Assembly: GCA_951406725.2 (NCBI GenBank)
Contig: OX597838.1
Location: 6,510,001-6,574,000 of the forward strand
Direction of reading: 5' to 3'
Origin: Octopus vulgaris
Taxonomy: Eukaryota
Length of the DNA stretch: 64,000 bases
In this document: positions 27,028 to 30,400 of the stretch, piece after piece
Numbering within the stretch: position 1 is the stretch's first letter
Layout of the letters: the number at the start of each line of letters is the position of its first letter
Position numbers and translations under genes: made by a program
The notes under the pieces: model-generated
What the model was told of the DNA's origin: nothing
Database searches by the model: none
Seen by the model: only the letters and a program-made list of their open reading frames with translations

Positions 27028-27080
<53 letters not shown>

Positions 27081-27257
27081 GGCTTAGTAAAATGAATTAC
27101 TTTGCCGCATACTGAACTCATTAGAAATAGCAGCCAAAAAACTTTTTTTAAACTATTTCTAATACTTAAAGAAAACCTCTCTCATATAGTGTTTGCTCAA
27201 TTCAACTCACGAAAGTATGGGGGTAAAGACATCAAAAAATCAAATGCAAAGGTTATT

Positions 27258-27309
27258 TGAGAACGTACGTTTCAAGATTAGTCAACACGACACTTCTATC
27301 ATCAGCTCA
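27258..27309 (-). ncRNA. Minimal type-I hammerhead ribozyme motif (mirror copy)
   Basis: Exact reverse complement of 27409-27460. Confidence 0.7.
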
Positions 27310-27408
27310 GAAACTCCTTGGTTTGGATTTGAAAACACTGAAAGTGGGAGCATACCCTTTCGGCCAAATCCAAACCAAAGTGTTTTCAAATCCAAACCAA
27401 GGAGTTTC

Positions 27409-27460
27409 TGAGCTGATGATAGAAGTGTCGTGTTGACTAATCTTGAAACGTACGTTCTCA
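27409..27460 (+). ncRNA. Minimal type-I hammerhead ribozyme motif
   Basis: Stem I TGAG/CTCA; core CTGATGA (27413-19); imperfect stem II (AGA/TCT, AGT/ACT); GAAA (27445-48); palindromic stem III ACGTACGT; GUU cleavage triplet (27454-56). Confidence 0.7.
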
Positions 27461-30400
27461 AATAACCTTTGCATTTGATTTTTTGATGTCTTTATCCCCA
27501 TACTTTCGTGAGTTGAATTGAGCAAACACTATATGAGAGAGGTTTTCTTTAAGTATTAGAAATAGTTTTAAAAAAGTTTTTTAGCTGATATTTCTAATGA
27601 GTTCAGTATGCGGCAAAGTAATTTATTTTACTAAGCCCTTTTATATAATGTAATAATTTGAATTCGCCTTAAATGGTCCCTTTGCATACTGAACACTTGG
27701 TGAAATTGATTAATAATTAATTAATTTTACCCTCAATTGTTGAAATATATATATATATATATATATATATACAGTGCTGAGTGCATTAAATTCTAATATC
27801 AAAATAATCAAACACTCATATTGGGGCGGGCGGCTCTCAGAATGTTTGTACGCGGAGCAATATGCTTAGCGGCATTTGGTCCTTCTTTTCGTTTTAAGTA
27901 CAAAATCCATTGAATTCGATTGGCATTTCATCATTTGGATGATGATAAAATAAGGAGGATTTGAGCACGGGAATCGGTGCACTCGAATTAGCACCACATA
28001 TGAAATTGCTAGACTTGTACCGAAATTGGGAACTAATATCTTCATCTCATCTTTTGTTTGTTAAATGCTTTATAAAATTTCATATTTATCTGAAAGAAGA
28101 AGAGACTGCAGAAATAATAGGAATGAAAACTGATTTTTTAAATCTATGTAGGCTTTTGAGACTTTCAGCTTTAAGTGTTTTGCGCTTACCGACAATTCCC
28201 TGTTCCTGAATTTGTGAAATTTCATTTATGAAACACATACTTGTATTTGAATGATGGCATATAACATGAGGCTTCGGTATAAGAATTGTTATAAATAAAT
28301 GTATTAATAAAATATTGAATTATGAATTATATTCACCACAAGGAGAAAAATGTTAAGAAATGTCATTGGGTTCGTATTAAGGATTTTTTCATATTATACT
28401 AAAGTTAAACTTAGAATATTTAAATATTGGCGAAGGTAATATGGTGCGAAAAATATTGTTGTGAATGGCAGGATAAATGGATGTAATTTAGAGAAACGGC
28501 AAAAGTAATGCATACATATTTACTGTATTTATGACGATCACGCAAGTTTCATTACCGAAATGCAATCCAACATTTTACTGTGATCGCATTCACATGATTA
28601 TGAATAATAATAATAATAATAATATCCATTGTTATGAGAGTACAATGCTAGAAGTATACGCTGAACGTGAGCTATTAATTTTCTACGAGTGTATATGCGA
28701 GAATTAAAGCAAATGTTTTGAAGATCATGAGGTTTTCTTGTTTCTTTTCTTATTTTTTTTTCTATTTGTGCGCATAATCTCCTTTTAAGAGGGAAATATT
28801 TATACTCCGTGTATTTAGCGTGGACCAGCTGCAAACCGTTCCTTCCGTTTATTCGAGGTTTTCTGTTGCAAATAACATTTCATATGTTTCTGCAATACAT
28901 AAATGGTGAGGTTATTTTTTTTTATTGCCGGGAAAGTTCAAGCCCTGTTTATGATCCGTTGCTGTAGATTATATAGTCTTTGTCTATTTCGAAATTCCCT
29001 ATGAAGGAATAATAAAAAAATCCTTACTTCTCCATATGTCATGAAATATGTGGGTATCTTAGTTATAGAGTGTTTAGTTTCGCTGTTGTTTGATTCGACT
29101 CCTATTTGCACGTAAACATGGGCGCACATACACACGTTTGTGTATAAGCGTTTGGGTTTGTGTGCGTAGGTGAATGTGTATGTGTGTATGTGAGTGTGAA
29201 TGTCTGTTAGTGTGTAAGTGTTTGTGATTGTCGGTTTGCGTATGAATTTATTTGTTGCTGATCTGCAGGCTTATATTTCGCATTGATAGTAAAATAATGT
29301 CGAAGGGAGGTCCCAACACACAATGGATCGATCGATAAAAATATATTTTATGCCGTTTTTTCTCCTCAATACGGACTCAAAATTACCATCGGATATATAT
29401 TCACTGTTGCAAATTCTCGCAACGGAACCTTCAATTTTAGGGAAAAAAAAAATCTATTCTATTCTTCATAACCAATCACTTAAATTGATTCACGCCAAGC
29501 TACAATGATCACAACATCGTTGCTAAAATATATGTCACTCAGTAATACTCCAGAATTTTTGCAAACGTTGAAATATTCCATGATAATACACATTACTATA
29601 ATGAAGCTTTTACAGAAAATAAATATCGTTTATAAAAATTACATTTATTATAAGAATACAGCTGCCAAAATATGAAACTAAATGTAATTTGGTACACTTT
29701 TTCCCCGAAACAAGAACTCCGCTATTATACAAATTAATCGTTAAAACACTCTGGAGCATACGGCAAAATGTTCGCAAAGTATTCGTTGAATTTGCTGTAT
29801 TCAATTACGGCAAAAATCGCTAAAATTTTTGGCATCCTTATTATCTAAAAAGAAACCAAAAAAAAATAAAAACAACCGTTTAAATCTTTGACTGAATCAA
29901 ACATTACTTTTATTTTCCATAATCATATAAATTGGTTCATTGTATTTAAATGTTAATGGAAAGTTATATTAACGTATAATAAGGCCTAAAAATAAACAAG
30001 CGTATCTGTAGGACACGTACCCTCTTAAAAACGTATTTTCTATGGTTAACATACATGGAAATTTGTAACATTATTAGATGTTACAACGTTTTATTGTTCT
30101 CAAACATATAAACCTTGGAAAGTTGGCAGACAAAATTGTGTACCAAATAGATCCATGGAACCGCAATTATTTAGGGCAACCACCCTTTTGGCACTTGAGC
30201 CGTATGCCTAATCCCCCATCTCAATAACCACCACAAATATTGACCCTTCAGGCAAATTCAAAATAGTTGTTTCACAATTAAACTATTTAACCCATTATTT
30301 TGTTGTATTTACATCCACTGGCCCCTTCATTTTACCACTTTTTTTTGACGTTCCTCGTCTTTCCGACGTCCACTTTGGGAACCACACAAAGAGAGAGTCT

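Follow-up and report, generated by a model that had tools for sequence, protein, structure and literature searches.

A fold-back of Octopus vulgaris DNA, lying within a window of 64,000 nucleotides (the whole stretch that was analysed, from whose first letter all positions are counted), is composed of two truncated 3′ ends of one repeat family joined head-to-head in a (TA)n tract. It is probably a dead-on-arrival insertion of an endonuclease-positive Penelope-like element (PLE) carrying a Hydra-clade-like ribozyme. We infer both the PLE and the clade membership from nucleotide anatomy, with Hydra as the best guess for the clade. The present analysis supports the proposal of an earlier note on this DNA that the insertion is of PLE type, bears hammerheads, is non-coding, and includes an inverted copy. 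The locus itself is ordinary, as this layout and a pair of hammerheads on opposite strands are already in print for PLEs.

Anatomy of the Fold-Back Insertion

The two inverted arms (27071–27339 and 27379–27647) are 98% complementary and spaced by 39 nt, and they form the longest and best of the 9049 inverted pairs in the 64-kb window. The previously described 577-bp fold-back with a hammerhead motif on each strand was recovered, including the mirrored motif and the arm length of 269 nt; the count of about 4 mismatches was not, since there are five (27094, 27130, 27135, 27149, and 27223). Two boundaries of the earlier description were also revised. The element is not self-contained and does not end at 27647, but is an asymmetric unit of ~675 bp ending near 27745, and the 39-nt "loop" is really made up of a 14-nt duplication and another 25–26 nt of the family in antisense. 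The features of the unit are as follows.

27031–27076, no strand: (TA)23 microsatellite that probably formed the left half of the target
27071–27364, minus strand: left arm, an inverted copy of the family 3′ end that is 5′-truncated and lacks the tail
27258–27309, minus strand: type I hammerhead motif, mirror copy
27338–27363, plus strand: small hairpin where the left arm is cut short at its 5′ side, a possible snap-back site
27365–27378, plus strand: 14-nt duplication of arm sequence, a putative template-jump scar at the junction
27379–27647, plus strand: right arm, a sense, 5′-truncated copy of the family 3′ end
27409–27460, plus strand: type I hammerhead (motif match and folding)
27554–27731, plus strand: part of the family 3′ end predicted to form three hairpins (folding)
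27648–27745, plus strand: one-sided tail of ~97 nt, family sequence beyond the right arm only
27746–27771, no strand: (TA)13 microsatellite that probably formed the right half of the target

Both outer ends of the insertion adjoin (TA)n in the one copy examined. The final 6 nt of the (TA)23 tract are common to the left-arm end, so that the boundary is ambiguous and a target duplication is unreadable. The left arm reaches 25–26 nt further upstream than the right arm, and family contigs match it up to 27364/27365 and then diverge into letters absent at the locus. The small hairpin at this truncation point was computed at −9.5 kcal/mol as RNA and −3.5 as DNA, and the adjoining 27365–27378 is identical to 27387–27400 and to the reverse complement of 27318–27331. 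Beyond the right arm, the family depth stays high through the bin 27703–27743 in all four runs, and pieces of contigs (records 8, 16, 21–23, and 30) cross 27647, while the exact end of the tail is obscured by repeat masking at 27737–27779. The left-arm end point corresponds to 27647, where a TATATA stretch forms an inner end site; it falls in the unpaired loop of the second predicted stem. The segment 27540–27744 folds at a z-score of −5.05, which none of 200 shuffles equalled, and the whole sense arm folds at −2.24.

It is scarcely credible that this palindrome is a fold-back artefact of assembly or library preparation. Although none of the contig pieces listed for four runs spans the locus centre (27,744 further pieces exist besides those listed), the arms differ at five positions (one of them, at 27588, by a letter private to the right arm), the flanks differ, and the tail is one-sided. 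In addition, other head-to-head joints occur at a depth of 21–106 in two studies.

Hammerhead Motif in Both Arms

The motif TGAG-CTGATGA-(25 nt)-GAAA-CGTACG-TT-CTCA is identical in both arms, with its core starting at 27413 on the plus strand and 27305 on the minus strand, and both copies read outward from the fold-back centre. On the plus strand it is composed of the following parts.

27409–27412 with 27457–27460, plus strand: stem I
27413–27419, plus strand: core
U27420 with U27444, plus strand: U·U pair
27421–27443, plus strand: broken stem II
27445–27448, plus strand: GAAA
27448–27450 with 27453–27455, plus strand: helix III, inside a palindromic 8-mer
U27456, plus strand: predicted cut after this nucleotide, the same site as proposed previously

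The conserved core boxes and three helices that define a hammerhead are hence present, with a weak stem II that is interrupted (3+3 bp) and a stem I of 4 bp. A strict descriptor applied without the stem II test matched 15 of 20,000 dinucleotide shuffles of 27365–27744 and, over the whole 64-kb window, the two mirrored sites only. Scaled to 64 kb, the chance of one match is about 12%; since the two copies are one mirrored motif, the motif alone is modest evidence, to which the variation within the family appears to add. A search with hammerhead models, which the earlier note had suggested, returned no Rfam hammerhead at the gathering score in the 64-kb window, and none among the 31 matches at E ≤ 10 in 26900–27900. 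The microRNA matches below the gathering score were rejected, as they reflect the long hairpin.

In 40 of the 76 variant rows of the family, five substitution rows fell inside the motif, all at N11.1 and in stem II/loop II, with none in the catalytic boxes. Loose contig ends of other copies showed changes at N7, N10.1, and loop III, and also a longer stem I. A compensatory stem I change from A-U to G-C was found as two halves on different contigs from different organisms. This pattern fits a conserved hammerhead, though it is not a covariation test.

In the Hydra clade, 14 of 25 families have a U·U at the base of stem II and 10 of the 25 have U as the cut-site nucleotide (our own count from File S2 of PMC8557442), so that these traits are not defects. 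The absent G10.1-C11.1 pair, previously given as a reason to doubt activity, is therefore normal for hammerheads of this clade. The real weakness of the locus hammerhead, as modeled, would be the broken stem II together with the short stem I. Minimal hammerheads of PLEs, as described in PMC4209133, are likewise of type I with a 4-bp stem I, an extra nucleotide after A9, and a palindromic helix III, and the spacing of the opposite-strand pair also agrees; the dual hammerheads of a Schistosoma mansoni PLE lie on opposite strands 100–700 bp apart. The locus differs from them in its 3-bp helix III and the lack of the G10.1-C11.1 pair. Thus, of the earlier comparison with minimal type-I hammerheads that have a palindromic stem III, the palindrome holds, whereas "minimal" does not apply in the sense of PMC4209133 with a helix III of 3 bp.

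Folding was evaluated with ViennaRNA, whose model has no tertiary contacts. A lone arm took the hammerhead fold with a probability of about 1e-5, and the bare double hammerhead reached −18.8 kcal/mol against a dimer minimum of −28.0 kcal/mol; the active form is predicted to be disfavoured even without the antisense arm. Published PLE hammerheads are described as weak or protein-dependent in PMC4209133 and PMC11167929. The fold-back adds a computed penalty of ~98 kcal/mol on the hammerhead, already in a transcript ending at 27480, and this burial supports the earlier proposal that the ribozyme is sequestered in the long duplex.

Family Copies and Their Head-to-Head Joints

Sequence of 26940–27720 was found in part in 20 of the 24 listed runs (12 studies, seven organism labels), and half or more of its words were present in nine runs; none of the runs containing it is recorded as RNA. 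For the family survey, contigs from four runs were aligned to 26760–27960, which gave 18,711 contigs in run X2 and 7,434 in run X3, with neighbouring repeats included. The family contigs are mostly 90–99% alike. The depth summed over X2 is about 2.5 million where the arm ends but 0.6 million upstream of the hammerhead, a weak measure that is not a copy number; divided by the depth of a single record it would suggest 10^4–10^5 copies, with the same restriction. Run X15, guessed to be RNA, contained 1443 family contigs, which cannot show expression, strand, or cleavage. The A>G and T>C counts were 4 and 5 in X15 and 4 and 4 in X2, and say nothing on editing because contigs drop rare variants.

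At least 17 other antisense-then-sense joints were identified, having 17 distinct left and 17 distinct right breakpoints. They comprise 11 of the 15 rows listed in table 5 and six from table 5c (with 32 and 5 further rows, respectively, besides those listed), after omission of four joints, namely three in the left flank and one uninterpretable "opposite strands" row. One joint is common to X2 and X3; each is represented by a single contig per run, and the short side is below 30 nt in 10 of the 11 table-5 rows. The locus formerly regarded as a symmetric, self-contained element is hence one of many differently truncated head-to-head copies. Assuming that the arms run unbroken to their 3′ ends, the hammerhead is kept in the antisense arm at three of the 17 joints and in the sense arm at one. 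Since none would keep both, the two-ribozyme layout is best read as an accident of truncation length. This count also bears on the idea of a selected regulatory unit, whose antisense arm switches the ribozyme off, or of a dedicated dsRNA source. The very large computed block of the ribozyme speaks for such a role, but besides the other joints, the arms are drifting apart and no transcript of the locus has been shown, which leaves the idea barely conceivable.

A DNA transposon of the MITE or fold-back type, bounded by long terminal inverted repeats (TIRs) and bearing a chance hammerhead-like motif, was also considered, as it would agree with the palindromic shape, the TA flanks, the high copy number, the ~12% chance of one motif per 64 kb, and the lack of an Rfam match. 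Such a transposon requires fixed, symmetric TIRs common to all copies, whereas the ends of the locus are asymmetric, the family centres are variable with 17 different breakpoints, family sequence runs through the centre, and depth is biased toward the 3′ end. This origin was rejected as very improbable.

Near-symmetric joints, with breakpoints within 10 nt, accounted for 5 of the 17 against 1.1 expected by permutation (p = 0.00085), an excess that may be inflated by assembly and display bias. It would suit a history in which a single tailed copy inserted first and the inverted arm arose later through DNA-level fold-back repair or replication template switching. The hairpin and short duplication at the centre point the same way, as do the family-minority letters that the arms share at 27142, 27233, and 27314, which imply one source copy or later gene conversion. 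However, the left arm has its 25–26 nt of family sequence missing from the right arm and ends at the internal TATATA joined to (TA)n with the tail uncopied, 12 of the 17 other joints are asymmetric, and the layout equals the published PLE signature. We consider this later origin of the arm improbable, and favour insertion of both arms by a PLE.

The arms are 1.9% apart. With a calibration in which a Jukes–Cantor (JC) distance of 0.09 equals 25 My (quoted in PMC13282606), their divergence would correspond to about 2.6 My, if this octopus calibration applies. The epithet "young" given previously therefore suits the copy, which is fairly young, and not the family, with its 90–99% likeness and seven organism labels. 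A printed description of the family was not found in the literature searched; the Zenodo repeat library of PMC13282606 may hold it.

Relationship to PLEs and Retrozymes

The insertion pattern described for PLEs in PMC8557442 consists of an inverted 5′-truncated copy, a tail at one end, and a (TA)n bias. At the locus, an inverted 5′-truncated copy stands head-to-head, as at the 17 further joints; 5′ truncation varies across copies, as their distinct left and right breakpoints indicate; and a type I hammerhead, with no Rfam match, lies in the terminal repeat on the sense strand. The one-sided tail agrees in kind and not in size, as it measures ~97 nt versus 30–40 bp in the published cases (PMC8557442, PMC3846280). 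Units of endonuclease-positive PLEs in the same two sources share the head-to-head layout, the variable 5′ truncation, the tail at one end, the hairpin at the inverted junction, the hammerhead near the 3′ end, and the AT-rich target. Apart from its tail length, the locus differs from them in being without an ORF or ORF link. A Pfam search of 145 of the 196 filtered window frames detected no RT or GIY-YIG domain, and gave a partial mariner transposase and two sub-cutoff matches only. Neither domain was found in the three sense frames of the unit, which has no coding signal in 380 nt. The linkage to a PLE RT/GIY-YIG ORF that had been suggested for inspection was hence found neither in the window frames nor in the sense frames of the unit. 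A weak Annexin match obtained with six frames read through stops (E 0.14) was taken as chance. Protein homologue searches, exact-pattern scans of viral, metagenome, and genome contigs, and blastn against phages gave no match, and a bacterial promoter scan, irrelevant here, was at chance level.

Regarding the clade, (TA)n at both ends of the one copy is a Hydra feature that is shared with Naiad and Neptune and is not diagnostic. The U·U pair, helix III, and cut-site U of the hammerhead fit the Hydra style, while its interrupted stem II (3+3 bp) differs from the 3–7 contiguous pairs of that clade. The clade, with members such as Penelope-13_HM, Hydra-1_Obim, and Hydra-1_aJap (Files S1 and S2 of PMC8557442), has the (TA)n target and a type I hammerhead with a helix III of 3–4 bp in common with the locus, as well as, in part of its families, the U·U at the base of stem II and the cut-site U, and Penelope-13_HM bears the motif on both strands owing to an inverted copy. 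The distance from hammerhead to 3′ end is about 285 nt at the locus versus roughly 100 in most of the Hydra families listed. The clade is further characterized by RWK, DKT, and CxCX5C motifs, no CCHH, and a C-terminal endonuclease, whereas the locus is known from nucleotide anatomy only. The Naiad clade was rejected, since according to PMC8557442 it requires the absence of a canonical hammerhead and a full type I motif is present here. Hydra-1_Obim was also rejected as the parent, as its published end does not match the locus sequence when compared by eye.

Non-LTR retrozymes (PMC7229834; 10.64898/2026.07.22.740005) are also non-coding, rich in copies, and low in GC, with a type I hammerhead. 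The family could be an ORF-less, short, non-autonomous retrozyme-like RNA, with a monomer of perhaps ~560 nt, that borrows PLE enzymes, the locus forming in the same way as proposed below. A 630-nt record found in X2 and X3, in which two copies of the 3′ region form a direct repeat with a period of ~558 nt, is in line with this, as are the lack of a coding signal in 380 nt, the structured 3′ end, and the proposal in 10.64898/2026.07.22.740005 that retrozymes derive from PLE pLTRs. Over its long piece, however, that record reaches a likeness of only ~81–86%, and the pieces listed for it include no hammerhead; 5′ truncation alone accounts for short copies. In retrozymes, units of ~300 bp that each carry a hammerhead follow one another in direct tandem, while the locus is inverted and would release no monomer; a retrozyme at the locus itself was rejected on this ground. 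We regard a retrozyme-like family as unlikely, and the truncated PLE copy is retained as the preferred reading.

Proposed Insertion Mechanism

Antisense sequence that starts in (TA)n makes up the top strand of the left arm as well as the bottom strand of the right arm, and each arm has some family sequence missing from the other. As sense RNA templates antisense cDNA only and each arm has such private sequence, the fold-back of a single cDNA fails to explain the unit, and two priming events suffice. In purified form, the PLE protein of Anolis cuts AT-rich DNA on both strands and extends each of them; two RT start sites on its RNA bound the tail, and its hammerhead needs protein (PMC11167929).

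In the proposed mechanism, the RT-endonuclease would nick the (TA)n tract on both strands, and the two 3′ ends would serve as primers for reverse transcription, with RNA of a single source copy of the family as the template. Synthesis would begin at the internal TATATA site (27647) in one case and ~97 nt further 3′ in the other, giving the one-sided tail, and both cDNAs would stop early, just upstream of the hammerhead. These cDNAs have the same polarity and could not anneal directly. The central hairpin and duplication suggest a short snap-back that gave them complementary ends: the left cDNA probably folded over at the hairpin on its end and was extended by a brief run of sense sequence, represented by the 14-nt duplication, with which the right cDNA would then have paired. 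An alternative proposed in PMC3846280, self-priming on an antisense template, is compatible with the locus. The hammerhead, acting as a dimer or with the help of protein, would serve the source element by processing its precursor RNA. At the locus it would be a passenger, where transcripts reading through from either flank are predicted to fold into a duplex of 269 bp and thereby to block the ribozyme.

The single locus matters little, its layout being already known for PLEs. The family is of some use, as it is very abundant and its many junctions could test how PLEs form inverted repeats, and its hairpins could test whether such structures feed RNA editing. In a wider and rather unlikely reading, the family would be an ORF-less, retrozyme-like parasite of TA-targeting PLEs with tens of thousands of near-perfect hairpins in an octopus-type genome. 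If true, the junction scars record the joining of same-polarity cDNAs by PLEs through snap-back and annealing, the structured 3′ end and 97-nt tail map two RT start sites, and the hairpins are the "inverted Alu" of octopuses, being a main source of their exceptionally high A-to-I hyper-editing. In PMC5625713, octopus repeats were not annotated for hyper-editing, and Penelope was the heavily edited repeat of a lizard.

Neighbouring Repeats in the Window

The stretch 26400–27771 is a stack of three TA-bounded repeats. Immediately left of the fold-back, at 26890–27030, lies a further repeat piece of very high copy number that is flanked by (TA)n on either side. A broken frame, Y-stop-GETNRR, lies at 26560–26620 (plus strand), upstream of the hammerhead of the neighbouring repeat; we take it to recall a GIY-YIG motif, an identity unsupported by the Pfam or homologue searches. 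Decayed frames at 19463–20313 and 20241–20597 include a sub-cutoff zinc knuckle (20032–20313) and the partial mariner transposase. A second repeat group has a minimal-hammerhead-like motif (core, 4-bp stem II, and GAAAC) ~100 nt from its 3′ end, with the following copies.

26719–26872, plus strand: second-group copy
5949–6083, minus strand: second-group copy
22581–22714, minus strand: second-group copy
58462–58620, minus strand: second-group copy
34910–35030, minus strand: second-group copy

At least four of these five copies adjoin (TA)n; their cores are partly decayed, and one is truncated. The group is likely another PLE family. In family sequence beyond 27364, seen in loose contig ends, the strand opposite to the main hammerhead carries the two core boxes together with the 3′ half of stem II, the 5′ half being absent; this partial motif resembles that of the second family, either by chance or as a possible relic of an older head-to-head fusion. 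A second fold-back at 58660–58799 (140 nt, 90%) lies just upstream of the hammerhead-like motif at 58583 (minus strand), and it may be a head-to-head or palindromic junction in the second family.
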